This document shows, piece by piece, positions 7,943 to 23,188 of a DNA stretch of 64,000 bases (positions are counted from its first letter, which is position 1; each line of letters begins with the position of its first letter). Source of the DNA: Patescibacteria group bacterium (GTDB lineage Bacteria; Patescibacteriota; Minisyncoccia; Phycocordibacterales; UBA9973). The stretch is taken from assembly GCA_040390725.1 (NCBI GenBank), contig JAZJXT010000002.1:28450-92449 (forward strand), in the 5' to 3' direction. The notes under the pieces were generated by a model. The model worked only from the letters and a program-made list of their open reading frames with translations. It did no database searches and was not told where the DNA came from. The position numbers and the translations under genes were made by a program.

Positions 7943-9112
7943 CTACTCTTCTTTTGCCACTTCTTCAGTTTCAACTTTATCTCCGTCAGTTTTTGCAACA
8001 GTTTTACCGTCACCTTTTATGTCTATTCTCCAGCCGGTTAATTTTGCGGCTAGGCGCACATTTTGTCCGCCTTTACCGATAGCGAGTGAGAGCTGATCAT
8101 CAGCGACTTCTACTACTGCTTTGTGTTCTTTTTCATCAACATCAATAGAGAGAACTTTGGCAGGGGAAAGGGAATTGGTAATAAATTCTTTTGGATCCGC
8201 AGACCAAGGAATGATATCTATTTTTTCTCCGCCGAGTTCGGCTGTGACAGTATTCACGCGAGCTCCTCTTTGGCCGACGCAAGAACCTACTGGGTCAATG
8301 TGTTCGTCATTTGAGTGAACGGTTATTTTCGAACGAGCTCCAGCTTCGCGAGCGATGGATTTTATTTCCACTACTCCGCTGGCAATTTCTGGCGCTTCAA
8401 TGGCGAAAAGTTTTTCCAAGAATTTCGGATGCGTACGAGAAAGGCGAAGGTTGATGCCTCTTGGGGTGTCTTCGACAGAATACAAATACACGCGAATTCT
8501 TTGACCACGCTGTAAATATTCTCCGGGGATTTGTTCTTCGGCTGGCAAAATACCTGTCGCTCTGGAAAAATCAATGTATGCATTGCCTCGTTCTATTTTT
8601 TGGACAACACCGGAAATTATTTCTCCTTCTTTTATGCCGTATTCATCAATGATAGATGTGCGTTCTGCTTCACGGATTCTTTGGATAATGACTTGTTTTG
8701 CAGTTTGAGCGGCGATGCGTCCATAATCTTCTTTTGCTTCGAGGGCAAAAATGATTTCATCGTTAAGCTCTGCGCCTTTTTTTATTTTCTTCGCATCTTC
8801 GAGTAAGATGTGGTGTTCGTCGTTGAAATAAGGGCGTTCGTCTTCGTCTTTTACTTCGTAATCTTTTTCATCTTCATTTTTTTCATCCATTCGGACGATA
8901 GTGTCATCAACGACGATTTTGATTTGGAAAAAATCGGTCTTACCTGTTTCCATGTCGAATTTCGCGCGGATGATTTGTCCTTTTTTGCCGTAATCTTTTT
9001 TGTACGCGGCGGCCATGGCTTGTTCGATAGCGTCCAATATTTTTTCTTTTGGAATTTTCCTTTCTTGTTCCAATTGTTCTAATGCTGATTTGAATGTTTT
9101 TATGTCTAACAT
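7943..9112 (-). CDS. nusA: transcription termination/antitermination factor NusA
   Basis: N-terminal NusA domain (MLDIKTFKSALEQLEQERKIPKE), S1 domain, and two KH domains (GQRGARVNTV..; AIGKGGQNVRLAAKLTGW). Confidence 0.9.
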   Translation of the reverse strand: MLDIKTFKSALEQLEQERKIPKEKILDAIEQAMAAAYKKDYGKKGQIIRAKFDMETGKTDFFQIKIVVDDTIVRMDEKNEDEKDYEVKDEDERPYFNDEHHILLEDAKKIKKGAELNDEIIFALEAKEDYGRIAAQTAKQVIIQRIREAERTSIIDEYGIKEGEIISGVVQKIERGNAYIDFSRATGILPAEEQIPGEYLQRGQRIRVYLYSVEDTPRGINLRLSRTHPKFLEKLFAIEAPEIASGVVEIKSIAREAGARSKITVHSNDEHIDPVGSCVGQRGARVNTVTAELGGEKIDIIPWSADPKEFITNSLSPAKVLSIDVDEKEHKAVVEVADDQLSLAIGKGGQNVRLAAKLTGWRIDIKGDGKTVAKTDGDKVETEEVAKEE

Positions 9113-9228
9113 AATTGATTTTGTTATATTTTTTAATAAAAAAAGCCCTGTTCTGCAGGACTTTACTGCACCCAGTATAGCATATTAAAATTTTTTACAC
9201 AAGTTATCCACAATGGCTCTATTATTGA

Positions 9229-9594
9229 TTGTCTTTTTGCTTGGTTTGGTTGTATAATATAAACAATATGTCTAAACGAAGTTTTATTGTGTTACTTATA
9301 TCTTTTATTGTTGTTGCTATTTTCGTGTTTTTATATTTTTATATAAATAATCAAGGTATTTTTAATCCAAATTCTTCCAATACTGCTGTAGTTCCAGCCT
9401 CAAATTCAAATGTATCATCTACACCTCAAATAGTGAAAGAGCTCACCGAGTATACACCACCGTCAAAAGACTTAAAAAGCACAAAACAAATCACTAAAGA
9501 GCTCTATTCATTTAAGGTTTCCACTGCTACTAAAACTTCTTCACGAACAGATTTATTAAAAGCATTACAAAGTGTTCAGCCTTCAAGTAATTAA
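9229..9594 (+). CDS. small membrane-anchored Ser/Thr-rich protein
   Basis: N-terminal TM (FIVLLISFIVVAIFVFLYFYI) then a low-complexity S/T-rich tail. Confidence 0.4.
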   Translation: MSFCLVWLYNINNMSKRSFIVLLISFIVVAIFVFLYFYINNQGIFNPNSSNTAVVPASNSNVSSTPQIVKELTEYTPPSKDLKSTKQITKELYSFKVSTATKTSSRTDLLKALQSVQPSSN

Positions 9595-9600
9595 AAAACC

Positions 9601-11094
9601 ATGAATAATAATTTTCAAAAACTTTTAACTTCCGGGATCATTGTTTCATTATTTTTTGTTTTTTTTGGTTTTTATAATTCCGTCAGCTCGAGCGCCATTG
9701 GACGAGGCTCGGGATATGCTTGGTCTGCCAATGATGGTGACGGCATGGGGTGGCTTTCTTTTAATTGTACTTCGGGTGGAAATTGCGGTGATACAAACTA
9801 TGAAGTTACCGCAGATAGAACCACTGGTGATATGACTGGGTATGCTTGGTCTCCTAATTACGGTTGGATTAAATTTGGAGGTTTGTCAGGCTTCCCGACG
9901 GGCGGAGGCACTACTCCTGCCAATGCAAAGCTTGATTATCATACCGGCATCATGACGGGTTGGGCTAGGTTTTGTTCGGTGGCTGCGACTCCTTCACTTT
10001 GTTCAGGATGGCCTGGAACCAATAATACTAATGGAGGATGGGATGGCTGGGTGAGTTTGAATGGTACTGGATATGGAGTCAGCAAGTCAGGTACTAATTT
10101 TACAGGTTTTGCTTGGGGTGGGGCTGATGTTGTCGGCTGGATTGATTTTTCAAATGTTTCTATACGTTATCCTCACAGTCCTGCTTCGGATCCTTTTGTT
10201 ATTTTGACTGTTAATAATCAGACGAATACTGAAGCAGACCCAGTCTTGGTTAATTCCGGAGAGCCATTTGTGTTGAGGTGGGATAGTGAAAATTCTAGTT
10301 CTTGTAATGGTGATTGGACTACTGATGCATTGACTATGCCGGCAGGGTCAGCGATATTGTCAGTAATTACAGACAAGCCTTTACCGAAAACTTACACCAT
10401 TTCTTGTGTTGGACAATCTGGAACCACTGATAGTGTTGTCAATGTCAGTATTGTGCCTTCTGACGTTGTGAATGCTGTTCCAAAACTTAATTTTTACTCT
10501 TCTCCTAATAATTACGTTCTTCTTCCAAATACTAAAACGACCTTGAAGTGGAATTCAAACGTTGCTATGGCTTGTAAGGCAGATAATGCTATTCAAAATA
10601 TTCGATCATCTTCCTCATGGTCTGGTAATGTAGGTGATTTATCTGCTTCGAATTCTTTCCAAAATTCTCTTGTAGTTGATGTTCCAGACAATACTCCATC
10701 TACCGAATATGGCATAGTTTGTACTGATGAAAGTGGTGCAGAATTTAAAAAGCAGGTTTATGTTTCTCAACAATTCCCTCCTGAAGGATTTAATATCGGA
10801 TATGATGCAGTGGATCCAACATCACATACCACCATGCTTCGCTTGAAAGATATCTTTAATCTTACTAGCAGTGATTGTACTACTACGGCATCCGTAGTAG
10901 GTACTGGATGGGATGGCACCATAAAGAGTGATGGTTCTGAGGTAAAGACTGTGACTGTTCCTGGAAGTGGCGCGACTTATACAGCTACATGTACTGGGTT
11001 GAATTCCGGGCTTCCTGTCATTAGATTTATTTCCTTGAAACAAGACAGTACCGCCGGCTCAACACAAATATCACCTTCATATATTGAACATTAA
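9601..11094 (+). CDS. secreted/membrane-anchored repeat protein (497 aa) with GYAWS...GWI.F repeats
   Basis: Signal anchor LLTSGIIVSLFFVFFGFY. Repeated GYAWSANDGDGMGWLSF / GYAWSPNYGWIKFGG / GFAWGGADVVGWIDFS units. Cys-rich C-terminal half. Confidence 0.55.
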   Translation: MNNNFQKLLTSGIIVSLFFVFFGFYNSVSSSAIGRGSGYAWSANDGDGMGWLSFNCTSGGNCGDTNYEVTADRTTGDMTGYAWSPNYGWIKFGGLSGFPTGGGTTPANAKLDYHTGIMTGWARFCSVAATPSLCSGWPGTNNTNGGWDGWVSLNGTGYGVSKSGTNFTGFAWGGADVVGWIDFSNVSIRYPHSPASDPFVILTVNNQTNTEADPVLVNSGEPFVLRWDSENSSSCNGDWTTDALTMPAGSAILSVITDKPLPKTYTISCVGQSGTTDSVVNVSIVPSDVVNAVPKLNFYSSPNNYVLLPNTKTTLKWNSNVAMACKADNAIQNIRSSSSWSGNVGDLSASNSFQNSLVVDVPDNTPSTEYGIVCTDESGAEFKKQVYVSQQFPPEGFNIGYDAVDPTSHTTMLRLKDIFNLTSSDCTTTASVVGTGWDGTIKSDGSEVKTVTVPGSGATYTATCTGLNSGLPVIRFISLKQDSTAGSTQISPSYIEH

Positions 11095-11186
11095 AAATAG
11101 CATGGTATACTTATTATTATAAAAATAAAATTATTATCAAAAAATTATTAGCCCCGACGCAAGTCGATTAAAATATTAAAAAAATT

Positions 11187-14100
11187 ATGAGTCACAAAAT
11201 AAAAACAGCTTTAAAATCAATATTCGTTCTCTCTATGGTCGTGTTGTCAGCGCATGCTTTTGCAGTATGGACACCGCCACCAGCAGGGATACCTCCAGCC
11301 AACAATACTACGGCTCCTGTGAATGTGGGTTCTGTGACTCAATATAAAACCGGTGGGCTCGTCGTCGGAGGTTTTCGTTCTACTGGGCCTGCATTTTTTG
11401 ATGATACTGTGCAATTCAAACAGGTGACGACTTTGCCTGATTGTACTGCGACTGATTCTAGCGGTAATTTTATATACAAAGGGGCACAAATATACTACAA
11501 CGGCAGTATGGAATTTTGTAATGGAGTTACTTGGTCAGTAGTAGGCACCAAAGATTGGCTGACTACAGCAATGGGCAATATTTACTATACAAATGCCGGC
11601 AATGTAGGTATCGGTACGCAAACTCCAGCTACCAAACTCGACGTAGTGGGAACCATTACATCAACTGGCTTGAATGTCGTAGGCAATACGGCGACAACTG
11701 GTTTGACTACGGGTGCAACTGGGCTCACAGTTAGCGGACCACTTTCTATTCCTGACGGTGCATCAGCAGGGAAGGTTTTGACTTCTGATGCTGCTGGTAC
11801 TGCAACATGGCAAGGCTTAATTGCATCTTGGAGTCTTTCTGGCTCTAGTCTTTTCCCTACAGATTTTGCAAATGACAATGTCGGCATCGGCACTGATAGT
11901 CCTGCTGAACGCTTGCAAGTCAGTGGAGGTAATATTTTGACAGATAATAAATGGGCATTTGAAGCTAAAAATGCTTCGGGTGTAAAAGAGGCTTGGATGT
12001 GGCCTAGATATACTGATAATGTAATGTACACTAATTATGGTGCAAATGGTTGGAATATTCGCGACAACGGTGGAGCTCCTGTTATGTTTATGGACAAGAA
12101 TGATAATGTTGGCTTAGGTAATATTCTTCCAACTAATAAACTTTCTGTGACCGGGAATGCGGACTTCTCGGGTAATGTTGGGATAGGAACAAAAACTCCA
12201 AGCGCTCAGCTTTCTGTACTTGGTAATATTGCGATAGTAAGAGATCCAGGTTTTACAAATTACTCCCCAGGATCATCTTTGTCTCTTGAGTCTTGGAGTG
12301 ATGGAACTTCCACTAGTCATGATGATGATGTAGGGGCACAAGTTAGCGCTGCTGATTGGCTGGCTGGTACTGATGGTGCTCCGGGCACAGATAAAATTGT
12401 AAAGTATGCTTGTCCTTCCGGTAGTGGTGGTAGTACTTATCATAATGATTATTACAGAATTGACCTCGGTTCAGGAGCTTATGATTATCGAAAAATCAGT
12501 GATGTTTTTTGTGTTGCCGGTACAGATAAATTCTCTTTGAGAACCGACAGAGGCAATTTGCAATTTTTAGATACTAATTCTAATCCTAAATTTATTATGA
12601 CTCAGTCAGGTAATGTCGGTATCGGCGTCACTGCTCCTGCTGTAAAGCTTGACGTAAACGGCGCAGTAAAATTCGGCGATGATACTACGATTGTTTGTGA
12701 TACCACTCATCCGCAAAACGCAGGAATACAGAGATATGACAAAGTAGATAATATAATGAAAGCTTGTAACGGCACCACATGGATAGCTGTCGGAGCAAAT
12801 GCTGCACCTTCATCTTCACTCTGGTCTGCAGGTACGGGTGATGATGTTTTCAAAACACTAAATACTGGCAATACTGGTATCGGAACCCAAACTCCAGCAG
12901 CAAAATTGCATTTGAGCGGAGGTAATTTCTTGATGGATAATAGCGCGACTTTGCAAGCTTACAATCACGCTGTGCCGGCGATGATTAATGATTGGATGTG
13001 GCCTAGATACCATGATCCTGTTTCCGGTACTGACATCATGTACACTAATTTTGATGTAAATGGATGGAGCATTCGCAACAATACTGCGCACCCTGTGATG
13101 TTTATGAAAGACAATGGCAATGTCGGTATCAACACAATAAACCCGGTAAACAAGCTTTCAGTTAACGGAGATGTTAATATCGGTGATTCTATAATTCCTG
13201 GAAAGCTCGGTATAAATACCACGACTCCTACTTCTTCTTTGGATGTAAATGGAGACATCACTGCTTCTAGGGGTGTTTCACTTGTGAATAGTTCAGCGCT
13301 TAGTTTTTATTCTGGCACAAAGGGAACAAGTGTATATGAGCTTCCATATTTGCCTGCGACGGGCAATGATACTTGTGGCACTTTAAATTCTGATACTGAT
13401 GGTGATGGCAGTGTTGTTCCAAACAACGATCGTGTCATGTGTGATGGTTTAATTTCAGGACCTAGATGTTATGATCGTGTTCATCAAAGCACTGGAGATG
13501 TGGGCGCTTATGTGACATGTGTGGCTGATGCGGGTACTTATACTATTGCAAACAATACTAATAATTTACAATTTTCAAATGGCACAGGCACTAATGCGGG
13601 TGTCAGAGTCACTTTAGATAAAGACGGCAAGATGGGCGTGGGTACGACGATTCCACAGGCAAAACTCGACGTCAACGGCGGAATTAAATTCGGTTTAGAT
13701 GGCTTGGCTACGGATACTATTTGTACTGTTGCCGGTGTGCAGAGGTACAATGGTGCTATGCAATATTGTGATGGAACAAATTGGGTTCCTGTCGGGTCTC
13801 CTATGTTTTGGAATGTTATCGGTACGGGTTCTGACCTCGCTACTATAAATACTGGTAATGTCGGCATCGGTACGGGCACGAATCCTCCATTAGCAAAGCT
13901 TGATGTAAATGGTGCAGTTAAATTCGGTGATCAAACTGTTGTAAAAGATATTACTACTCCAAATTCAAATGTGCCGGGCTTTCCAAATGTCACTTGTAAT
14001 GTAGCCGGTACCCAGAGATACAATTCTGTTTCTGCAAAGATGGAATCTTGCGATGGTCATTATTGGTCAAGCGTTGGAGATAAATCTCTTTGGAATGCTG

Positions 14101-17100
14101 ACACGACTGGTGTCATGGTTTCTTTGGCTACTCCTGGACAAAAAGTCGGTATCGGCACAGCTACTCCTCATTCTGCTCTCGAAGTTGTCGGTAATTTACA
14201 AATCACAAGCCCTATCAGTGGTCCTAGTTCCAACAGTATAATTTTAGGAAGTGGAAAGTATGACAATTATGGTGGATGGCCTCTTATTCCAATGCTGACA
14301 ACTTCTGGTGATCCATTACCAGCAGACCCTGGATCAAGTGCGGATACTTGTGACAGTAATGAAAATGCTGTATATAGTTGTCCGGATAGTGTTACAAAGA
14401 ATTGTACAGATGTTACTTCGGGTACATTTAAGTCTTCCACTAGTAGTGCTCCTAGGGACGCATGGTATAAGCGAGATGTGTCTTGTGTTTCTCCTGATGA
14501 GCCTTTATATCAAATACAAAATAATTCTGGGGATTTGAAATTCATAAATAATAATGGTCCGCAAGTTACAGTTAATCAAAATGGCAATGTCGGCATAGGC
14601 ACTACCACTGCTCCGGGTGCAAAACTCGATGTAAACGGTGGCATCAAATTCGGCCTTGATGGTTTGGCTACGGATACTACTTGTACTGTTGCCGGTGTGC
14701 AGAGATATAATCCTGCTAATTCAAATGGAATGCAATTTTGTGATGGCTCACACTGGAAAGATGTCGGTTCTCCTGCTACATGGAATGAAGTTGCTGGTGT
14801 GCTTTCTCCATTTACTCTGACAGATAAAATCAGTATTGGTAATGTTGCTCCTTTTGAAATAGATCCAGGCAATGTTTCTTCAAATTCCTCAAATGCTGGA
14901 TTCCTTCGTTTTGGTGATAATTCTGGATGGAAATTCCATTTTGGAAGAGCTAAAGAATCCACTTCTTCCGGTTTCAATACTGACACTACCGGTTCTATTA
15001 TGACGATGCAAGACAATGGCAATGTGGGTATTGGTACTACATCTCCGAAGGCAAAATTTGAAGTTGCAGGAAATAGTGGAGATGACTTAATTAACATTAG
15101 AAATCTTTCTACCAGTCAGCCAAATGCAACTTCTTGGGCATTGCGTCCGGTTACAAATAGTAAGACTGCTTATGCTACAGATTTGCAATTCTTCGAACAC
15201 GGACTAGACGGAGCTAGAGTTACCTTCCAAGGTAATGGTGGAAATGTAGGTATCGGTACGACAAATCCTACCGCTAGGCTCGATGTTGCCGGAGCAGTTA
15301 AATTCGGTGATGAGCACGTAGTTACTACTTGTGATTCTACTACGAATGGTACACAAAGGTATAATAGTTCTGGAGTAATGCAATGGTGTAATGGTGTAAA
15401 CTGGCAGAGTTATGGTAGTGGTGTGGGCTGGATAGCTAATGGCAATGATATTTATAATGGTAACAATGCTGGAAATGTAGGGATAGGCACCGGAGCAACT
15501 CCTGTAAAAAATAAACTTTTTGTTAATGGTGATGTTGGTACTTCTGCTTCTATTATTAGTGGCGGTATGATGTATTTGCAAGGCAATGATTATGAACATT
15601 TAGGTAATTTGAAATATGTCAGCCAAGGAATCTTTCTCGGAGGAGATGGATTGAGTCATGGAGATATTTCATGGCTTCCAAATTCCAATACCCTTAACCT
15701 AGGTACAGGTGATGATCCTACAAAGGCAGCTAATTATCCTGATCAATATGGCCCTGTAAATCTTTCCTTGGGTGGACAAATCAGAATCGGTGGCTCTACT
15801 GCGGTTTTTGATTACAATGGACACAGTGTTACTACTGTCCCTCATCCTCCTACGAAGGGGCAAGTTTTGACAGCGTTAGATTCTACCGGTCTTGCTTCTT
15901 GGCAAGCACCCCAAGCTGGCCCTTGGTCAGTTGTAGGTGATGATATTTCAAATTCAAATACCGGAATGGTTAAAGTGAATGGTTCAATAGCTACAATATT
16001 GGGATTAAATAATAATGCGAACATCAGCCAGTATGATTTGGGAGCAAACAAGATTGGTGCCGCTACTTCTATTTATTCTTATGGACGCATTTGTGCCGGA
16101 AATAATTGGGGAACTTGTGACAGTGCTACTCAGTCCGGTGTAGTTATAGAATCTTCCGGTCAAGGTAAATTTGGAGCCGTTGATATTTCTGGGAATGGGC
16201 CGTCATACTTTGCTGCCGGGAATCTCGGAGTAGGCACAAATTCTCCTAACGCTAAACTTGATGTGAGCGGTGATGTGCAGGTTTCAGATGGTGTTTCTGT
16301 GGTAGATAGCTCAGCGGTTAGTTTTTATTCCGGTGATAAACATATCAACTCTCATACGGATTGGACTAATAAAAGTTCAAATAGTGCGACGCGTACCCCT
16401 GATACTTGTCCTGGTGCTGATACAAAACTTAAATTTGAGTGTATAGGTTCTAATACTGTGAATTCTTGTACAGACACCGCTGATTATCAGGAATATACTT
16501 CCGGACAACTTACCTTTGATGGTTGGGCAACTCGCACAGTTTCTTGTGTGGCTACTACCGGTGTTTATTCTGTAAAGAATAATAATAGCACTTTGCAATT
16601 CTTGAATGATAAAGGCACTGCTAAGTTAACTTTGGATCAAAATGGCAATTTGGGTGTAGGTGGCAATGTTAGTCTAGGGGCTGGCGGTAGTCTTCTTCAG
16701 ACTTCACCATTATACTTACTCGGTGATGCTAATGGATATACTGCTCTTAATTTAGACCCTAGCCAGTACGCCAGCCAGGGTATTCGTTTCGGAGGAGATG
16801 GAAAATCTCACGGAGACATGGCATGGATTCCAGGCTTAAATACATTTTATCTTGGAACAGGAGATAATCCGCAAGATATGCTCACAGGTGTTCCAAATAG
16901 ATACGGTCCGGCTAATCTTACTTTGGCGGGTGCTCTATCTATCGGCGGGCAAATTACAATTGCCGGCGGTTCCCCTGGTGCCGGAAAAGTTTTGACATCA
17001 GACAGTACAGGTAAGGCGACTTGGCAACAGCTCCCTCCTTCATCTGTATCTCCTTGGCTAGTAGGAACGAATCCAAACACACATAATACTACTATTAGTA

Positions 17101-17372
17101 CTGCGGCTAATACTGAAGTTACAGTAAATGGAAATTTGACAATTGCTAATGGCGCTAATGGGGTCCTTACTACTTCGGGAGATATTAACGCTGGTCAGAA
17201 TTTAAATGTTGCAGGAAGTTTAATTTTACTAAAAAAGTGTTACACTAATGATAAAAAAACTACTTTTACTAATTTCTATGGTACTAGTACCCCGAATCTA
17301 TATGGTAGAGCACTTTTTTTAAATGGAGATGGCAGTATTTACCCACAGCATGTAGATGGTTGTGATAACTAA
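11187..17372 (+). CDS. giant secreted tail-fibre-like repeat protein (2061 aa)
   Basis: Signal peptide (LKSIFVLSMVVLSAHAFA). At least 15 'GNVGIGT.TP.AKLDVNG' units. About six copies of the C...G.QRYN...C.G..W..VG module. Large internal duplications (WMWPRY...VMFM twice; GDG.SHGD..W.P..NT..LGTGD..YGP.NL twice; G.VLTSD..G.A.WQ three times). Confidence 0.7.
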   Translation: MSHKIKTALKSIFVLSMVVLSAHAFAVWTPPPAGIPPANNTTAPVNVGSVTQYKTGGLVVGGFRSTGPAFFDDTVQFKQVTTLPDCTATDSSGNFIYKGAQIYYNGSMEFCNGVTWSVVGTKDWLTTAMGNIYYTNAGNVGIGTQTPATKLDVVGTITSTGLNVVGNTATTGLTTGATGLTVSGPLSIPDGASAGKVLTSDAAGTATWQGLIASWSLSGSSLFPTDFANDNVGIGTDSPAERLQVSGGNILTDNKWAFEAKNASGVKEAWMWPRYTDNVMYTNYGANGWNIRDNGGAPVMFMDKNDNVGLGNILPTNKLSVTGNADFSGNVGIGTKTPSAQLSVLGNIAIVRDPGFTNYSPGSSLSLESWSDGTSTSHDDDVGAQVSAADWLAGTDGAPGTDKIVKYACPSGSGGSTYHNDYYRIDLGSGAYDYRKISDVFCVAGTDKFSLRTDRGNLQFLDTNSNPKFIMTQSGNVGIGVTAPAVKLDVNGAVKFGDDTTIVCDTTHPQNAGIQRYDKVDNIMKACNGTTWIAVGANAAPSSSLWSAGTGDDVFKTLNTGNTGIGTQTPAAKLHLSGGNFLMDNSATLQAYNHAVPAMINDWMWPRYHDPVSGTDIMYTNFDVNGWSIRNNTAHPVMFMKDNGNVGINTINPVNKLSVNGDVNIGDSIIPGKLGINTTTPTSSLDVNGDITASRGVSLVNSSALSFYSGTKGTSVYELPYLPATGNDTCGTLNSDTDGDGSVVPNNDRVMCDGLISGPRCYDRVHQSTGDVGAYVTCVADAGTYTIANNTNNLQFSNGTGTNAGVRVTLDKDGKMGVGTTIPQAKLDVNGGIKFGLDGLATDTICTVAGVQRYNGAMQYCDGTNWVPVGSPMFWNVIGTGSDLATINTGNVGIGTGTNPPLAKLDVNGAVKFGDQTVVKDITTPNSNVPGFPNVTCNVAGTQRYNSVSAKMESCDGHYWSSVGDKSLWNADTTGVMVSLATPGQKVGIGTATPHSALEVVGNLQITSPISGPSSNSIILGSGKYDNYGGWPLIPMLTTSGDPLPADPGSSADTCDSNENAVYSCPDSVTKNCTDVTSGTFKSSTSSAPRDAWYKRDVSCVSPDEPLYQIQNNSGDLKFINNNGPQVTVNQNGNVGIGTTTAPGAKLDVNGGIKFGLDGLATDTTCTVAGVQRYNPANSNGMQFCDGSHWKDVGSPATWNEVAGVLSPFTLTDKISIGNVAPFEIDPGNVSSNSSNAGFLRFGDNSGWKFHFGRAKESTSSGFNTDTTGSIMTMQDNGNVGIGTTSPKAKFEVAGNSGDDLINIRNLSTSQPNATSWALRPVTNSKTAYATDLQFFEHGLDGARVTFQGNGGNVGIGTTNPTARLDVAGAVKFGDEHVVTTCDSTTNGTQRYNSSGVMQWCNGVNWQSYGSGVGWIANGNDIYNGNNAGNVGIGTGATPVKNKLFVNGDVGTSASIISGGMMYLQGNDYEHLGNLKYVSQGIFLGGDGLSHGDISWLPNSNTLNLGTGDDPTKAANYPDQYGPVNLSLGGQIRIGGSTAVFDYNGHSVTTVPHPPTKGQVLTALDSTGLASWQAPQAGPWSVVGDDISNSNTGMVKVNGSIATILGLNNNANISQYDLGANKIGAATSIYSYGRICAGNNWGTCDSATQSGVVIESSGQGKFGAVDISGNGPSYFAAGNLGVGTNSPNAKLDVSGDVQVSDGVSVVDSSAVSFYSGDKHINSHTDWTNKSSNSATRTPDTCPGADTKLKFECIGSNTVNSCTDTADYQEYTSGQLTFDGWATRTVSCVATTGVYSVKNNNSTLQFLNDKGTAKLTLDQNGNLGVGGNVSLGAGGSLLQTSPLYLLGDANGYTALNLDPSQYASQGIRFGGDGKSHGDMAWIPGLNTFYLGTGDNPQDMLTGVPNRYGPANLTLAGALSIGGQITIAGGSPGAGKVLTSDSTGKATWQQLPPSSVSPWLVGTNPNTHNTTISTAANTEVTVNGNLTIANGANGVLTTSGDINAGQNLNVAGSLILLKKCYTNDKKTTFTNFYGTSTPNLYGRALFLNGDGSIYPQHVDGCDN

Positions 17373-17420
17373 TTAGCAAGTAGCTCGTAAGGATTTTTCT
17401 TACGCTTGTGTTGTTCTTAC

Positions 17421-17449
17421 AAAAAAATCCCCATGACGGGGATTTTTTT
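17421..17449 (+). terminator. rho-independent terminator after the giant gene
   Basis: aaaaaaatcccc atgac ggggattttttt: perfect stem flanked by an A-run and a T-run (bidirectional). Confidence 0.6.
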
Positions 17450-17463
17450 GGTATAATAAGTGT
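17449..17463 (+). promoter_or_regulatory. extended -10 (TGgTATAAT) abutting the pilB start codon; a leaderless or near-leaderless pilB mRNA is possible
   Basis: tataat at 17452-17457 with TG at 17449-17450; ATG at 17464. Confidence 0.3.
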
Positions 17464-19215
17464 ATGCAAGTAAATGAAGATCAGTTAAAAAAATTTATTT
17501 TGGAAGCAGGGCTTGTGACGCGGACGGATTTGGAAGAAGTCGCAGAGAAAGAGGTAAAGACAAATCAAAAATTTGGCAATATTTTATTGTCAGAAGGAAA
17601 AATTTCTGAAACAGATTTAAAAAGAATGGAAGCTTTGGTTTTAGGAATTCCATTTGTGAATTTGGCAAATGAAAAAATAGATTTTTCTGTTATATCTTTG
17701 GTTCCCGAACCTATCGCTCGCAATCACAATATTATTGCTTATAAAAAAAGTGACAAGGGTCTCGAGGTTGCGATGTTTGATGTGGATGATTTACCTGTGA
17801 TTGATTTCGTAAAGAAACATTCCGGTTTGAAAATATTGCCTAGGCTTACTGATAGTTCTTCTATCAAAACTGCTTTGGCGCAATACGGCAAAACTTTGCA
17901 AATGGAATTTGATGATATTATTCAAAAAGAAAATTCTTCTTTCAAGAAAATAAATGAGATAGAAGATGGTGAGAAATCAGAAAAAGAATTAAAAGAAATG
18001 GCGGAAGATTTGCCTGTGGTAAAAATAGTCGATTCTTTGATTTCTCATGCCATATTGCAGAATGCTTCCGACGTGCATATCGAGCCGGGGGAAAATAATC
18101 TCGTTGTGCGATACCGAATAGACGGTATATTGCATGATGCTATGACTTTGACAAAAAGTGCGGCTAGCGGGGTCACCGCTAGAATAAAAGTTTTAGCCAA
18201 TTTGAAACTAGACGAAAAAAGATTACCTCAAGATGGCAGATTTAAAATAGAAAAAAATGGAGATAAAGTTTCCTTTCGTGTTTCCACCTTGCCGACTTTT
18301 TATGGAGAGAAAACTGTTATTAGAATTTTGAAAGAAGGCGCACATGGATTTTCTTTGGAAGGCCTCGGTTTTCACGGTGAAGGATTGGAGAGGATTCACA
18401 ATTCTTTGAAACAAAGAATAGGTATGGTATTGGCTACGGGCCCTACGGGCTCGGGTAAAACAACAACTCTCTATACGATGCTCGATATTTTAAACAGGCC
18501 GGAAGTGAATATTTCCACCGTTGAAGATCCTATCGAATATCAAATGCCGAGAGTAAATCAAACGCAAGTAAAACCGGAAATAGGAATGACTTTTGCAAAT
18601 GGCTTGCGCAGTTTATTGCGACAAGATCCTGATATAATAATGGTGGGGGAGATACGTGACGGAGAAACTGCCGGACTCGCAGTGAATGCATCTCTTACCG
18701 GGCACTTGGTTCTTTCTACAATCCACACGAATTCTGCTGCGGGTGCGATACCGAGACTTATAGACATGGGAATATTACCATTTTTGATAATTTCTACGGT
18801 AAAAACAATCATAGCTCAGAGGTTGGTGCGTCAGCTTACAGCAAATAAAGAAAAATATTTTTTATCTGCGGATGAAATAAAAAATTTGGCAAAAATTATA
18901 GATTTGGACAGGATGCTCCAAATGTTAAAAAATGAAAAAGTCGTAGGAGTGAAAGACACTTGGGAGAAAATTCCTTTTTATAAAGCAGTACCGAGCAGTG
19001 AAACACCTGACGGGTATTCAAATCGTATAGGTATTCACGAAGTTTTAAAAATGTCTCTGGCTATAAAAGAAATAATTACTCGCGGAGGAAGCCAAGACGA
19101 GATAGAGAAACAAGCAAAAGAAGAAGGCATGATGACAATATTAGAAGATGGAGTTTTCCAGTCAGTCTTGGGCAATACGACACTGGAAGAAGTATTTAGA
19201 GTTGTTTCAGAATAA
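17464..19215 (+). CDS. pilB: type IV pilus assembly ATPase PilB/GspE
   Basis: GspE_N-like N-terminus; Walker A GPTGSGKTTTLY; Asp and His boxes. Confidence 0.9.
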   Translation: MQVNEDQLKKFILEAGLVTRTDLEEVAEKEVKTNQKFGNILLSEGKISETDLKRMEALVLGIPFVNLANEKIDFSVISLVPEPIARNHNIIAYKKSDKGLEVAMFDVDDLPVIDFVKKHSGLKILPRLTDSSSIKTALAQYGKTLQMEFDDIIQKENSSFKKINEIEDGEKSEKELKEMAEDLPVVKIVDSLISHAILQNASDVHIEPGENNLVVRYRIDGILHDAMTLTKSAASGVTARIKVLANLKLDEKRLPQDGRFKIEKNGDKVSFRVSTLPTFYGEKTVIRILKEGAHGFSLEGLGFHGEGLERIHNSLKQRIGMVLATGPTGSGKTTTLYTMLDILNRPEVNISTVEDPIEYQMPRVNQTQVKPEIGMTFANGLRSLLRQDPDIIMVGEIRDGETAGLAVNASLTGHLVLSTIHTNSAAGAIPRLIDMGILPFLIISTVKTIIAQRLVRQLTANKEKYFLSADEIKNLAKIIDLDRMLQMLKNEKVVGVKDTWEKIPFYKAVPSSETPDGYSNRIGIHEVLKMSLAIKEIITRGGSQDEIEKQAKEEGMMTILEDGVFQSVLGNTTLEEVFRVVSE

Positions 19216-19216
19216 A

Positions 19217-20434
19217 ATGAAATTTTTTTACACTGCAAAATTACAAAATGGAGAAATTTTAAAAGGAGAAATGGATTCTTCAGATCGTTTTACTCTTTCA
19301 CGCGAGTTGCGAACACGCGGGTATATTCCTTTGTCTGTTTCAGCAAGGGGAGTAAATTCTTTTGATGTAATGAAAGAATTTACTCGTATTTTTGGCCGTA
19401 TTAAAGTCTCTGAGCAAGTTATTTTAACCAAGAATTTAGGCAACATGCTCAAGGCCGGGTTGGCATTGTCTCGCGCATTGTCTGTTTTGGAAAAACAAAC
19501 AACAAATGAAACATTAAGAAAAATTTTAATAGCACTTACAGGGGAAATAAATTCAGGTGGGACATTTTCTTCCGGGTTATCAAAATTTCCAAAAGTTTTT
19601 TCAAAACTTTTTGTTTCGATGGTTCGCGCCGGCGAGGAGTCGGGCAATCTCGCCGGCGCATTGGCTGAAGTCGGTGCGAATTTGGAGAAATCAAATGCTT
19701 TGACTAAAAAAATAAAGGGTGCGCTCATTTATCCGGGAGTTATTCTCTCTGCTATGGTTGTCGTCGGAGTATTGATGTTTGCGTTCGTGGTGCCGACGCT
19801 TGCAAAAACTTTCATTGAGCTCGGCGTAGCATTGCCGGCATCTACTCAGTTTATAATATTTTTAGGTAATTTCTTTTCAAATTATTTAATTTTATCTTTT
19901 GCTTTGATTATTGGTTTTGTTTTCGGCATCGTGGCTCTTTTCCGAGCGTCTTTCATGGCTAGGCCCATTGATTTTGTAGTTTTGCGTATTCCAATTATTA
20001 GTAATTTGGCCAAGGAATTAAATACTGCCCGCACAGCGAGGACCATCGCATCGCTTATTATTTCCGGAGTTCCCATTACCCGCGCAGTGCAAATAGCCGA
20101 AGATGTGGTTCAAAATGTATATTATAAAAAAGTTTTAAAGGATGCGCGCATAGCCATAGAAAAAGGTGCGCCATTTTCGGAAGTTTTTACAGAACATCCG
20201 GAACTTTATCCGGTGATGATGTCGGAGATGGTAGAAGTCGGAGAAGAGACGGGCAAGCTTTCCGATATGTTGCTCGAGATTGCTGTTTTTTATGAAAATG
20301 AAATAGAAAATAAAACAAAAAATCTATCCACTATCATAGAACCATTTTTGATGATAATAATCGGTACAGGAGTAGGATTTTTTGCAGTGTCTATGATCAC
20401 ACCTTTGTACTCTATACTTAATAATATAAATTAA
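19217..20434 (+). CDS. pilC: type IV pilus inner-membrane platform protein PilC/GspF
   Basis: Starts MKFFYTAKLQNGEIL at the ATG (19217) two nt after the pilB stop; the 19148 start in the ORF track overlaps pilB and is rejected. Two GspF repeats with TM segments. Confidence 0.9.
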   Translation: MKFFYTAKLQNGEILKGEMDSSDRFTLSRELRTRGYIPLSVSARGVNSFDVMKEFTRIFGRIKVSEQVILTKNLGNMLKAGLALSRALSVLEKQTTNETLRKILIALTGEINSGGTFSSGLSKFPKVFSKLFVSMVRAGEESGNLAGALAEVGANLEKSNALTKKIKGALIYPGVILSAMVVVGVLMFAFVVPTLAKTFIELGVALPASTQFIIFLGNFFSNYLILSFALIIGFVFGIVALFRASFMARPIDFVVLRIPIISNLAKELNTARTARTIASLIISGVPITRAVQIAEDVVQNVYYKKVLKDARIAIEKGAPFSEVFTEHPELYPVMMSEMVEVGEETGKLSDMLLEIAVFYENEIENKTKNLSTIIEPFLMIIIGTGVGFFAVSMITPLYSILNNIN

Positions 20435-20435
20435 A

Positions 20436-20903
20436 ATGAGAAATTTTTATCAAAAGGGAATAACATTAGTTGAGACTTTGGTTGCAGTGGCTATCATTGT
20501 TCTCATTCTTGCTATTGTTTTGCCTTCTTTTAATACAATAAAAAAAAATAATATTTTGAAAAGTACCACTGAAGATATTTTTTCAGCTCTGGACAATGCT
20601 CATTCACAGACTCTCTCGTCTGTGAGTTCGTCCACGTATGGGGTGCACTTTCAGTCTGATAAAGTTGTGATTTTTAAAGGCACAGTTTATTCATCGAATG
20701 ATGTAAATAATAAAACTGTAAATATAAACTTTCCGGCAAGTATTTCAAATGTAAATTTTAATAGTGTGAGTGCAATTTCCGGTGATATATACTTTGCTCA
20801 TCTGACTGGAGTGCCGAGCAAGACCGGTACGGTGACCATTGCTGTTTCTTCCAGTACAAAAATAATTACGATTTCAGCAACGGGGAATTTTAGTATAAAT
20901 TAA
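20436..20903 (+). CDS. prepilin-type N-terminal cleavage/methylation domain protein (pilin/pseudopilin)
   Basis: KG|ITLVETLVAVAIIVLILAIV: class III signal with Glu+5. Confidence 0.8.
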   Translation: MRNFYQKGITLVETLVAVAIIVLILAIVLPSFNTIKKNNILKSTTEDIFSALDNAHSQTLSSVSSSTYGVHFQSDKVVIFKGTVYSSNDVNNKTVNINFPASISNVNFNSVSAISGDIYFAHLTGVPSKTGTVTIAVSSSTKIITISATGNFSIN

Positions 20904-20905
20904 TC

Positions 20906-21343
20906 ATGATAAATTTTCTTAAAAATATAAAAGAAAAAAGAAATAAAGCCGGATTTTTAATGGTTGAAGTCATTGTGGCTATTTCTATTATTACCGCTTC
21001 TGTTTTGTCAGCGATGGCAGTCGCCCAAAAGGCAGTATCTATTTCCAGACAATCAGTTCATTCCGCACAAGCCGCATTCTTATTGGAAGAAGGTTCAGAG
21101 AATGCCCGAATATCGAGAGATAATGCATGGGCCAATGTTGCAAGCATAAACACAACAGAGACAATAGGTATTTTTACAAGGACGGTGGTGGCTTCTAGTG
21201 TATTGCGAAATGTGACGACGGGAGCTATTGGCTCCGGAGTCAGTGATGCCAATACAAAATTAATAACTGTCACGGTTTCTTGGAAGGAGGGAGCTACGAC
21301 TTTATCAAAAACTTTACCATTTTATTTGGTAAATATTTTTTAA
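20906..21343 (+). CDS. prepilin-like protein
   Basis: AG|FLMVEVIVAISIITASVL. Confidence 0.7.
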   Translation: MINFLKNIKEKRNKAGFLMVEVIVAISIITASVLSAMAVAQKAVSISRQSVHSAQAAFLLEEGSENARISRDNAWANVASINTTETIGIFTRTVVASSVLRNVTTGAIGSGVSDANTKLITVTVSWKEGATTLSKTLPFYLVNIF

Positions 21344-21350
21344 TAATTAT

Positions 21351-21866
21351 ATGCAAATATTTTTCAAAAATAAAAAATTAATAAATAGCGGCGGGTATGC
21401 TTTGGTGGAAACTATTTTTTACATTGCTATTTTAGGTATTCTTTCTACGGCTGTTATCAGTGCTTTGGTGACTATGGGAAAAACATTCAAAGAAACTGTC
21501 GCACAAACGGCATTATTGCAAAGTTCCTCTATTATGGAAAGAATGTCCAGAGAAGTACGGCAAGACTATAGCGCAACTTTAGTCAGTTCAACTGATTTAA
21601 TCTTAAAAGATTCCGCCGGAGTAAATAAAACGGAATTCAAGCTTTCTGGTACTGATTTGCAATTATTGGAAGGTTCCGGTTTAACTTTTACCGGTAACTT
21701 GAATTCTCCAAATGTTACAGTTACAGCTTTGAGTTTTACACAGATTACAACCACACAAGGAAAAGCATTTAAAGTGGTCATGTCAGTCAGATACACTTTA
21801 GGGTCAGTTGTTCGCACTGCGGATTTTTATGATACAGTTACATTGAGGGGAAGTTATGTGCATTAA
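21351..21866 (+). CDS. prepilin-like protein
   Basis: GG|YALVETIFYIAILGILSTAV. Confidence 0.7.
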   Translation: MQIFFKNKKLINSGGYALVETIFYIAILGILSTAVISALVTMGKTFKETVAQTALLQSSSIMERMSREVRQDYSATLVSSTDLILKDSAGVNKTEFKLSGTDLQLLEGSGLTFTGNLNSPNVTVTALSFTQITTTQGKAFKVVMSVRYTLGSVVRTADFYDTVTLRGSYVH

Positions 21867-21868
21867 TT

Positions 21869-23188
21869 ATGAAAATAAAAAATAAAAAAATAAAATATAA
21901 TTCCGGCGCGGCGATGCTCATATCTGTGATATTTTTTCTTTTTATTTCTTTGGCGATTATTGCCGGACTTGTTTCTCCTTCAGTGCGAGAATTTAAAATT
22001 GCCAGGGATTATTTGCAGTCCAGGCAAAGTTTCTTTTTGTCTGAATCTGCTATTGAAGATTCTTATTATCGTATAAATAATAGCTTGCCACTTGGTTCGA
22101 CAGATACTTTGACTATCGGCAGTACTACGGCGACAGCTACTATTGTGGCTGACGATGTTAATAATAAAACCATTACATCTCTTGGTGATTTATCTTCAAG
22201 ACAAAGAACAAATCAATTAAAAATAAATTCCAATTCTTCGGTAGTTTTTGCTTATGGAACACAGGCAGGTGAGGGGGGAATTATTTTTTTACAGAATACA
22301 GGATTAGTCGGTAATTTGTATTCCAATGGACCTATTGCGGGATATAGTAATGCTTATGTGACAGGTAATGCGTATGCTGCTGGCAGTTCAGGAACAATCA
22401 CTACGAGTGGCGGTTCTTTTTGCATAGGGGGTTTTACTTCAAATAATCATTGTACATTAAATTCTAGTGATGCTCATGCTCATACAATAACAGGGACGAC
22501 AGTAGCAGGTACTCTATACTGCCAAACAGGTTCTTCTAATAGTACTTCTTGCAATACAACCCAAGCAGACCCGGCAGTTATTTCTTTGCCTGTAACTGAT
22601 GCAAATATTACTACATGGAAACACGATGCTGCTACAGGAACTATTATTAATGGTGATTATACTGTCTCTGCGGATACTACTCTCGGCACAGCAAATGCCA
22701 CGGAAATTACTGGAAATCTTACAGTGAATAGCCGTACTACTCTTACAATTGCAAATACTATTTATGTTGTTGGAAATATTGTAATTAACGGTGATTTACA
22801 AATGGCATCTATTTACGGACCACACAGCGCAGTGATTATTGCAGATGGCTTGATTTCAACTGGTGGAGGTGTTCATGTTTATGATTCCGGAACTGCTGGG
22901 AGCTATGTAATGTTACTTTCAACTAGCACTTGCGATGAAAATACTTCTACTGGCCCTTGTAGCGGGCATAATGCTATGGATATAGGAAATAGCTCTGATA
23001 TTATGATTATTAATGCGCAGAATGGAACTGTTTATATGGCTAATGGCGGAAACGCAAAAGAAGTTGTTGGACAAAAAATACGCTTAAAGAATAATACTGT
23101 TGTTACTTATGGTACTGGTTCCACTACTGCTAATTTTTTGAGTGGTATTGGTAATGTTTGGCGGGTTTCGAGCTGGCTCGAGATATAA
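21869..23188 (+). CDS. large pilin-like / pilus-associated protein (439 aa)
   Basis: Pilin-like hydrophobic N-terminus SGAAMLISVIFFLFISLAIIAGLV lacking Glu+5. Thr/Gly/Asn-rich C-terminal beta-rich domain. Confidence 0.5.
   Translation: MKIKNKKIKYNSGAAMLISVIFFLFISLAIIAGLVSPSVREFKIARDYLQSRQSFFLSESAIEDSYYRINNSLPLGSTDTLTIGSTTATATIVADDVNNKTITSLGDLSSRQRTNQLKINSNSSVVFAYGTQAGEGGIIFLQNTGLVGNLYSNGPIAGYSNAYVTGNAYAAGSSGTITTSGGSFCIGGFTSNNHCTLNSSDAHAHTITGTTVAGTLYCQTGSSNSTSCNTTQADPAVISLPVTDANITTWKHDAATGTIINGDYTVSADTTLGTANATEITGNLTVNSRTTLTIANTIYVVGNIVINGDLQMASIYGPHSAVIIADGLISTGGGVHVYDSGTAGSYVMLLSTSTCDENTSTGPCSGHNAMDIGNSSDIMIINAQNGTVYMANGGNAKEVVGQKIRLKNNTVVTYGTGSTTANFLSGIGNVWRVSSWLEI

Follow-up and report, generated by a model that had tools for sequence, protein, structure and literature searches.

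A giant tail-fibre-like protein encoded beside the type IV pilus genes of a Patescibacterium is a candidate for recognition of other cells

How do ultra-small Patescibacteria find and hold their partner cells? Type IV pili and unnamed "adhesins" are the sole leads so far, and few species have been cultivated (PMC10633639, PMC11665869, PMC11623550). A gene that bears on this question lies in a stretch of 64,000 nucleotides, hereafter the window, from a Patescibacteria group bacterium (GTDB lineage Bacteria; Patescibacteriota; Minisyncoccia; Phycocordibacterales; UBA9973; NCBI GenBank assembly GCA_040390725.1, contig JAZJXT010000002.1, positions 28,450 to 92,449 of the forward strand). It encodes a protein of 2061 amino acids (aa), here called the giant fibre, directly upstream of type IV pilus genes. 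The initial annotation of this DNA had suggested a cell-surface adhesin or fibre, and this appears to be the best reading of the evidence. We consider it moderately probable that the protein is a Sec-exported, probably homotrimeric, phage-tail-fibre-like surface fibre, akin to those mosaic adhesive trimeric (MAT) fibres of Bdellovibrio bacteriovorus that have no S74 domain, and that it contacts a ligand on another cell or surface. By analogy with such fibres it is a candidate for how Patescibacteria recognise other cells. Parts of the gene are given below in window coordinates, with residues numbered from the first methionine; P and L numbers below denote proteins and loci.

11187..17372, + strand: giant fibre gene, one uninterrupted open reading frame (ORF) with an ATG start, 2061 aa.
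11187..11264, + strand: signal peptide of Sec type, aa 1-26, with cleavage predicted to follow AHA or AFA and an n/h/c pattern ending in AxA as in relatives.
11265..11441, + strand: N-terminal handle, aa 27-85, WTxPxxxPPxNNxxxPVNVGxxxQxKxGGLxV, defined by a profile.
11598..16271, + strand: shaft with 16 capping-loop motifs (aa 138-1695) and presumed beta-helix units between them, motif spacing 23-249 residues.

The protein had been described as secreted, and as far as sequence features go this is borne out: a lysine-rich n-region and an 11-residue h-region lead to AHA ahead of the predicted cleavage site, the N-termini of relatives align with this N-terminus, and beyond the signal peptide there are no further hydrophobic segments. 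The longer start at 11187 is preferred over Met17 (the codons in question are window 11187-11234) because the alignment with relatives supports it; the public gene call for an identical protein (P0001, 2045 aa, from a Logan contig) begins at Met17 and has most of the signal peptide cut off. Glycine, threonine, asparagine and serine make up 41% of residues, and all 30 cysteines are placed in paired module contexts, which fits an extracytoplasmic protein.

The tail-fibre character of the protein lies in the motif GNVGIGTxxPxxKLxVxG. At least 15 copies had been reported, and we count 16 with a looser regular expression (at aa 138, 230, 306, 329, 475, 561, 644, 672, 814, 890, 985, 1133, 1278, 1352, 1429 and 1678) and 11 with the strict expression N[VTL]G[IV][GN]..L.[VL].G, against a mean of 0.012 and a maximum of 1 in 2000 residue shuffles. 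The suggested likeness of these modules to tail fibres is upheld from three sides. PHROG tail-fibre families match the giant fibre at 1.7e-34, 2.3e-13 and 1.2e-11; a search of PDB sequences gave four weak matches, of which the best two, the Bdellovibrio fibres Bd1334 (8OML, E 3.2e-4) and Bd2133 (8OND, E 0.08), align with it exactly through GNVGIGxxxPxAKxDVNG; and a capping-loop consensus, V-G-G/N-pi-x-x-P-x-x-x-L, has been published as common to MAT fibres and S74 phage fibres (PMC10769870). Judged by these alignments, the motif is not new and is the capping loop of trimeric beta-helix domains. In MAT fibres the loop shuts both ends of each intertwined trimeric beta-helix unit of ~95-130 residues (PMC10769870), and most capping motifs of the giant fibre lie 74-148 residues apart, a spacing that fits a chain of capped beta-helix units. 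We picture ~16-20 short beta-helix units strung between the capping loops into a shaft, which would give a mature fibre ~80 nm long when scaled from Bd2133, in which 370 residues span 142-150 Å.

The giant fibre has 646 homologues, and module and domain counts given here are from the best 120 of these, which include the query's identical entry P0001. Several homologues are named "tail fiber domain-containing protein" and a few are named trimeric autotransporter adhesin, and 48 of the best 120 carry Peptidase_S74 at the C-terminus (counted from the table). The giant fibre itself gave no match to PF13884 at E <= 1, whether searched whole or as ten overlapping segments, and its SDxxxK strings stand in unrelated contexts only. 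Membership of the S74 subgroup was rejected on these two counts, and with no S74 domain the giant fibre is placed with the non-S74 subgroup.

Further modules accompany the capping motifs along the chain, and were defined by self-comparison and by hidden Markov models built from the internal copies.

11442..11546, + strand: degenerate QRYN-like Cys-pair module, aa 86-120, C86/C111.
11724..11819, + strand: VLTSD box 1, aa 180-211.
11910..12191, + strand: B unit 1, aa 242-335, duplicated at aa 573-650 and also present in P0003.
12219..12608, + strand: C unit 1, aa 345-474, a Cys-bearing insertion unit with 2 Cys.
12657..12803, + strand: QRYN module 1 (QRYD; C504/C527).
12903..13136, + strand: B unit 2, aa 573-650.
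13254..13625, + strand: C unit 2, aa 690-813, with C730, C752, C761 and C778.
13668..13799, + strand: QRYN module 2 (C846/C861).
13899..14081, + strand: QRYN module 3 (C937/C955).
14184..14582, + strand: C unit 3, aa 1000-1132, with C1055, C1065, C1073 and C1100.
14628..14771, + strand: QRYN module 4 (C1166/C1185).
15285..15419, + strand: QRYN module 5 (C1382/C1401).
15525..15821, + strand: D unit 1, aa 1447-1545, within the best 120 homologues in the giant protein only.
15822..15911, + strand: VLTSD box 2.
16284..16661, + strand: C unit 4, aa 1700-1825, with C1741, C1752, C1761 and C1787.
16665..16961, + strand: D unit 2, aa 1827-1925.
16938..17033, + strand: VLTSD box 3.
17034..17369, + strand: C-terminal 112 aa, the presumed distal tip, with G/N/T-rich strands and a terminal loop closed by C2018/C2059.

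Internal duplications of 40-70 aa had been noted; duplications are present, and they are longer than that (99-131 aa), pairing residues 781-878 with 1104-1202 (59% identity over 103 aa, E 1e-35), 242-360 with 573-703 (44% over 131 aa) and 1447-1540 with 1827-1925 (43% over 99 aa). Where at least five QRYN modules had been seen, the strict pattern finds four (aa 846, 937, 1166 and 1382), a QRYD copy at 504-527 makes a fifth, and there is a degenerate copy at 86-111. Both cysteines of the module, whose conservation the initial annotation had proposed to check, are kept in each of the six copies of the giant fibre, and in 30 of 32 once the copies of homologues are counted as well; Cys-free variants of the form GTIRYNxxxGFQGxxGxxW also exist. 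The module had been called novel, which holds in so far as its profile matched no Pfam family and no PDB sequence, but it recurs in seven of the best 120 homologues and, Cys-free variants included, in small proteins of the handle family described below, and as such it is unannotated, yet not unique to the giant fibre. C units occur in eight of the same 120 and VLT boxes in 16, and D units and the C-terminus in the giant protein only. The three G.VLT..G.A.WQ boxes of the initial annotation were found at aa 195, 1558 and 1933, and a VLT profile had no match among PDB sequences; indeed, PDB profile searches with the QRYN, VLT, GYAWS (below) and handle alignments returned nothing beyond a chance nanobody match. 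QRYN and VLT modules share one slot in the chain, after KLDVxGxIK and before W...GxxIYxxNxGNVGIGT. MAFFT sets the two in register, and hhalign aligns only their common KLDVxGxIK lead-in. The proposal that QRYN is a disulphide-bearing variant of the GKVLTSDxxGxAxWQ junction was rejected, since hhalign supports the lead-in only, and the relation is one of positional analogy. In a structure predicted with AlphaFold2 (AF2), the QRYN copy at aa 846-871 forms three short strands with a predicted local distance difference test score (pLDDT) of ~76-89. The disulphide-bearing C units and the small QRYN and VLTSD junction modules may decorate or stiffen the shaft, and the lineage-specific distal end, made up of the D units and the C-terminal loop, would be the part that touches a ligand on the other cell or surface. 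A search with the last 222 residues gave four matches, all through the VLT box, and no relative of the D unit or tip at that sensitivity.

At the other end of the chain the picture is one of wide conservation. Several proteins encoded in the same chromosomal slot upstream of pilB share with the giant fibre its first ~60 mature residues, with a signal peptide ending in AxA followed by WTxPxxxPPxxNxxxP[IV]NxGxxxQxKxGGLxV, and the family consensus is WTxPTxxPPxxNxxAPINVGxxxQxKxGGL. The size of this family was taken from an exhaustive profile search, a word-indexed search having given only three matches and being unsuitable. Among 1.84 billion cluster representatives, 7011 match the handle profile at E <= 1e-3 and 570 at E <= 1e-10, and the giant fibre ranks 7 of 7011 (72.5 bits, E 2.7e-15). 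In nearly all of the 150 listed of these 7011 the match starts at about residues 22-40, directly after the signal peptide. The 142 new proteins among those 150 have a median length of ~250 aa (range 69-1067) and 62 of them contain a fibre-type motif; the longest handle protein, P0006, has 3523 aa. Peptidase_S74 closes two of ten handle proteins scanned, and the family has members with and without it. Neither Pfam families nor PDB sequences matched the handle profile. On the evidence of this profile, the first ~60 mature residues define a very large, undescribed family. An iterative search of all ORFs in 80 pilB-centred loci (below) found 19 handle ORFs of 117-1546 aa in 12 loci, the smallest consisting of the handle and a C-terminal Cys-closed hairpin. 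Such mini handle proteins (117-123 aa; L035 8366-8719, L039 7208-7579, L072 9131-9493 and 9524-9895) run from a signal peptide through the handle to a C-x(8-10)-C hairpin at the C-terminus, for example VPVCVDGLSGKLVICP, and their genes lie at times in tandem, directly upstream of pilB. We propose that the conserved handle fixes the fibre at the cell surface, where it would most likely dock on the product of the GYAWS gene, described next, or on another envelope element.

9601..11094, + strand: GYAWS-repeat protein, 497 aa, conserved genomic partner of handle proteins.
9268..9594, + strand: small ORF, 108 aa when counted from its ATG, with a single hydrophobic helix at the N-terminus, first + strand gene after nusA.
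L084 3051-4316, L001 19180-20757, L087 11394-12386 and L088 6122-7288: GYAWS genes elsewhere.

A second repeat protein with GYAWS...GWI.F repeats had been reported at 9601-11094, and it is present there. Its gene shares a strand with the fibre gene and stops 92 bp short of it. The protein has an N-terminal hydrophobic anchor or signal, a ~145-aa domain of four G[YWF]AW[SG]xxxGW[IV]x[FL] hairpin repeats, and three Cys-pair Ig-like repeats; across the family the C-terminal parts vary. Searches of Pfam, NCBIfam, PHROG and PDB found no relative of the family. GYAWS genes occur in 13 of the 80 pilB-centred loci, always in the gap between nusA and pilB, and where the whole gap is visible and holds a handle gene a GYAWS gene is there too (9/9). 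Outside pilB-selected loci they adjoin the handle genes of P0005 (L084), P0145 (L087), P0135 (L088) and P0002 (L001, with a divergent handle), and in an unbiased scan of metagenomes with the handle profile, which gave 35 loci of at least 8 kb, 16 loci contain one. Over all metagenome loci with GYAWS there are 24 GYAWS-handle pairs, with a median distance of ~25 bp and 21 of the 24 on the same strand. The pairing of handle and GYAWS genes is the most constant feature of the system, and GYAWS is the more constant genomic partner. In many lineages the two genes as a rule share a strand, with 6-54 bp between them. With genomic linkage as the evidence, the handle has its best candidate docking partner in the GYAWS protein. 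A conjecture, with no database support, is that its aromatic-rich repeats bind envelope polymers. The protein also carries, at about aa 103-112 (window 9907-9936), a capping-loop-like string, GGGTTPANAKLDY, which groups at the DNA level with the capping motifs of the fibre (repeat family D5) and could be due to chance or be a common element. The small ORF ahead of it has a sub-threshold Pfam match to ABC2_membrane_3 (E 3.3e-4, 20.3 bits against a cut-off of 31.6), and the equivalent cassette of L084 also holds a small transmembrane (TM) protein; this ORF is an uncertain member of the system.

The chromosomal setting of the cassette is defined by two features downstream of the fibre gene.

17421-17449, + strand: hairpin resembling an intrinsic terminator, flanked by A and T runs, in the spacer that separates the fibre gene from pilB.
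17464..23188, + strand: type IV pilus block, comprising pilB, pilC, three genes for prepilin-like proteins and an ORF of 439 aa that has a hydrophobic segment at its N-terminus.

The pilB, pilC and pilin genes said to lie directly downstream were found (pilB, pilC and pilin-like genes), and tpiA follows the block. A scan of species-representative genomes with the PilB of the window gave 80 loci from metagenome-assembled genomes of Nomurabacteria/Paceibacterota type, with PilB identities of 63-81%, a result that likewise gives the window its taxonomic place. The backbone, nusA on the minus strand and then pilB-pilC-pilins-orf439-tpiA, is conserved across relatives, and the nusA-pilB gap (window equivalent 9113-17463; L004-L083) ranges among them from 114 bp to >9.8 kb. 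Of the 80 loci, 44 show the gap in full. It is empty in eight of these, and the others have + strand ORFs with signal peptides, mostly unrelated to the giant fibre; a handle and GYAWS cassette is present in 9/44. Six large slot proteins that were scanned have CARDB, PKD, InlB-B-repeat, beta-helix or TSP1 domains. The nusA-pilB position is a variable slot for adhesion-type surface proteins.

Between the fibre stop at 17372 and the pilB ATG at 17464, the 91-nt spacer folds at -29.4 kcal/mol (z = -5.1 against shuffles) and contains the hairpin AAAAAAAUCCCC-AUGAC-GGGGAUUUUUUU. A terminator 14 nt before the pilB promoter had been claimed: the T-run does end 14 nt before the pilB ATG, but no full promoter is called there. 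The consensus terminator scan did not list the hairpin, and counts of promoter-like and terminator-like consensus sequences in 9000-17700 are at chance level, so that we draw no conclusion on transcription units beyond this one strong hairpin. A perfect TATAAT stands at 17452-17457, right after the T-run and 6 nt ahead of the pilB ATG, with no -35 element called; were it in use, the pilB mRNA would have little or no leader. Further on, pilC in its longest ORF shares 68 nt with the end of pilB (window 19148-19215), and the true pilC start is probably a later codon because PilC matches in relatives begin after pilB.

The giant fibre can be set against four kinds of known protein. The MAT fibres of B. 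bacteriovorus, among which Bd2133 and Bd1334 are non-S74 (PDB 8OND, 8OML), have an invariant, conserved N-terminal domain of ~130 aa that is rich in beta structure, variable tips, and S74 and non-S74 forms; their authors raised a possible interplay with type IV pili, and the binding target of the conserved N-terminal end was left open (Caulton et al. 2024, PMC10769870). In common with these the giant fibre has a signal peptide followed by a conserved N-terminal region, a shaft of units bounded by capping loops, no S74 chaperone, a lineage-specific C-terminal end, predicted disulphides and a mosaic of exchangeable modules, and it aligns with them directly through the motif. It differs in its size (2061 against ~1000 aa) and its 16 capping motifs, in its Cys-rich C units, QRYN modules and D units, in its tightly linked GYAWS partner gene and pilus-locus location, and in its host, a Patescibacterium, none of which is in Table S3 of PMC10769870, a list of MATs from other lifestyles. 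The handle, which is found across the candidate phyla radiation (CPR), looks different from the MAT N-terminal domain and is likened to it by position alone; the PDB holds only C-terminal constructs of Bdellovibrio MATs. With the S74 phage fibres and tailspikes (the L-shaped fibre pb1 of T5, 4UW8, and the K1F endosialidase, 3GW6; PF13884) the giant fibre shares the capping motif and style of repeat, the PHROG matches, the PF13884 domain of many homologues and weak fold-search ranks, whereas it has no S74 domain, a Sec signal peptide, a chromosomal non-phage context and, in place of a virion-attachment domain, an N-terminal handle common to cellular proteins. Like PilY1/PilC adhesins it is large, Sec-exported, encoded at a locus of type IV pilus genes and possibly involved in cell contact, but it has no PilY1/Neisseria_PilC beta-propeller or vWA domain in Pfam or NCBIfam searches, its conserved part is N-terminal rather than C-terminal, its architecture is that of a fibre and its link to pili is statistical only. 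Trimeric autotransporter adhesins are also long, repetitive and modular in the stalk, as the probably trimeric giant fibre would be. An autotransporter was nevertheless rejected, for there is no YadA-type C-terminal anchor and there are no head, neck or stalk Pfam domains; to our knowledge, Patescibacteria have no outer membrane into which such an anchor could insert. The giant fibre was likewise rejected as a type IV pilin or pseudopilin, as it has no G/FTLxE class III signal and no N_methyl match, unlike the neighbouring pilin genes. A sortase substrate was also considered and rejected: the sole LPxTG-like string, LPATG at aa 722-726 (window 13350-13364), is internal to C unit 2. No hydrophobic segment follows this string and the C-terminus is hydrophilic, and it is probably not a sortase signal.

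The kind of protein is therefore already known, as a bacterial tail-fibre-like or MAT fibre; what is new is its size, its set of modules, its orphan tip, the CPR-wide handle, the GYAWS partner and the variable slot next to the pilus genes. In the literature library that was searched, no paper on Patescibacteria was found to describe tail-fibre-like proteins, the handle or the GYAWS family.

An alternative is that the giant fibre, or handle proteins in general, are carried at the tip of the type IV pilus or are exported and presented by the pilus machinery, much as the PilY1/PilC adhesins, which are exported by Sec, are borne on the tip complex of minor pilins. In the 80 pilB-centred loci, every one of the 19 handle ORFs falls inside the nusA-pilB gap, with 53-3156 bp between it and pilB downstream; the gene for P0005 is directly upstream of pilB in the same nusA slot of a more distant genome, that for P0081 directly follows three or four prepilin-like genes, that for P0145 directly follows a complete pilB-pilC-pilins-pilD cluster, and that for P0180 is 3.7 kb from a pilin gene. 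In the 35 unbiased loci pilB or pilC occurs eight times, against a background of ~5% that is a rough estimate from a 20-kb span, a ~0.8-Mb genome and one or two pilus clusters rather than a computed control, and the interplay with pili raised by the MAT authors points the same way. It is difficult to reconcile direct mounting with the 27 of 35 handle genes that have no pilus gene within 10 kb, with P0002 and P0003, the two closest cellular homologues, which have no pilus genes alongside, or with P0150 and P0135, which have none nearby. The fibre gene is separated from pilB by the terminator-like hairpin, its product starts with a Sec signal instead of a prepilin motif and contains no PilY1/PilC domain, and the slot, which also holds unrelated proteins and can be empty, may be an insertion hot spot. 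The link of handle genes to pili is a statistical tendency, enriched and not obligatory. The contiguity stressed in the initial annotation stands in that handle proteins recur in this slot and in the unbiased loci near pilus genes, but the exact gene is not kept beside pilB. Direct mounting on the pilus is possible, less likely than a MAT-like fibre with a surface-fixed handle, and on balance we think it unlikely. Fibre and pili plausibly serve one process, partner-cell contact, without co-transcription.

That the gene is a phage part, the tail fibre of a prophage, prophage remnant or tailocin-like element, would agree with its best family matches, which are phage tail-fibre PHROGs, with the many homologues that have no signal peptide and resemble virion fibres, with P0004 (25% identity over 64% of the query), which lies on a phage-like contig with amidase, DnaB-type helicase-primase and ribonucleotide reductase genes, and with a G+C content of the fibre gene (0.41-0.42) above the window average. 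This origin is nonetheless very improbable. The 64-kb window has no phage structural, lysis, integrase or replication genes, the neighbours nusA, pilus genes, tpiA, pgk, recJ and comEC are those of an ordinary chromosome, small cellular proteins in their thousands have the signal peptide and handle too, relatives carry the cassette again at this chromosomal slot, and no close relative of the whole protein was found in 2.9 million viral contigs; a prophage gene or virion tail fibre was rejected on the housekeeping context, the signal peptide and this last search. A cellular surface structure need not recognise partners, and the protein might be a structural or protective part of the envelope, whether as a spacer, as an accessory to an S-layer, within a glycocalyx-like fringe or as a decoy for phages. 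Most members of the very large handle family are small proteins whose ends have no known binding fold, searches with Pfam on segments and with the tip found no lectin-like or other recognisable binding domain in the distal part of the giant fibre, and the conjectured binding of envelope polymers by GYAWS repeats would suit such a role. Phage fibres and Bdellovibrio MATs, however, which are the characterised relatives of this architecture, serve to bind receptors and have swapped tips, the same slot holds proteins with adhesion-type domains in relatives, and its content differs strongly between close relatives, which is a better fit to diversifying recognition than to housekeeping, and we regard a role apart from recognition as improbable.

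Several results weigh against the MAT-like, ligand-contacting fibre that we favour. Its homology consists of a short repeated motif and spacers of similar composition (23-32% identity), with no usable Pfam or NCBIfam match on the whole protein or, for Pfam, on ten overlapping segments. The distal region is without homologues, and nothing in it points to a ligand. No recognised anchor is present, as there is no LPXTG-type end, C-terminal TM segment or S74 chaperone. AF2 models had a mean pLDDT of 61.5 for aa 27-240 and 65.4 for aa 690-915, values that are to be expected for single chains, the only form predicted, of a fibre presumed to be trimeric. Foldseek with the second of these low-confidence models gave no significant match in the PDB, where Bd2133, Bd2439, Bd1334 and the Mu, T4 gp34 and T5 fibres rank at the top (E 0.08-4), or in BFVD, where the top ranks are S74 or "intramolecular chaperone" phage fibres (E 5e-3 to 0.1); these ranks are suggestive, consistent with MAT and phage fibres, and no proof.

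A broader proposal starts from the pairing of genes. Handle and GYAWS proteins together might form a widespread, undescribed fibre-display system of Patescibacteria, in which a membrane- or wall-anchored GYAWS protein would be the socket and interchangeable plug-in handle proteins, from stubs of ~100 aa to the 2061-aa fibre and with or without S74, would be exchangeable receptor-binding proteins, often deployed alongside type IV pili. We put this forward tentatively, as more doubtful than not. If it were true, handle proteins would be to the cell what receptor-binding proteins are to a phage, and a main factor in setting the range of partners or hosts; if it is wrong, ~7000 protein clusters and a partner family that now carry no annotation are still a useful result. 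The locus joins a protein of MAT or phage-fibre type, a vast unannotated handle family and a tightly linked partner gene at a hypervariable slot of the pilus operon. As such it offers concrete candidates for host-range determinants, and it bears on two open questions of the MAT field, the target of the conserved N-terminal end and the involvement of pili.

Some further observations concern the fibre gene and its surroundings. The G+C content of the fibre gene region (window 10001-16000; 0.41-0.42) exceeds the ~0.33-0.40 of most of the window, which may reflect its Gly/Ala/Thr-rich composition or foreign origin. DNA repeats inside the gene are old (over 100 nt, <=86% identity); inverted repeats are absent from it, and no sign of recombinational switching was found. 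In L084, the locus of P0005, tpiA and pgk come straight after pilB and genes for PilC or pilins are missing from between them, which leaves the handle fibre there linked to a lone pilB. A ComEC-type gene (Competence and DUF4131) lies at 29974-32139 of the window, ~7 kb downstream of the pilus block, and a similar gene lies ~6 kb downstream of pilB in L084. Beside P0081, L085 (9213-9896 and 12277-16848) has a Y1 transposase gene, two genes of the 23S_rRNA_IVP family and a 1523-aa fibre ending in Peptidase_S74, a neighbourhood that suggests a mobile island of fibre genes. Finally, the window encodes a second large secreted protein (39629-42958, 1109 aa) with a right-handed beta-helix region and an LCAT/lipase-type alpha/beta hydrolase domain, which could be a membrane-attacking enzyme.

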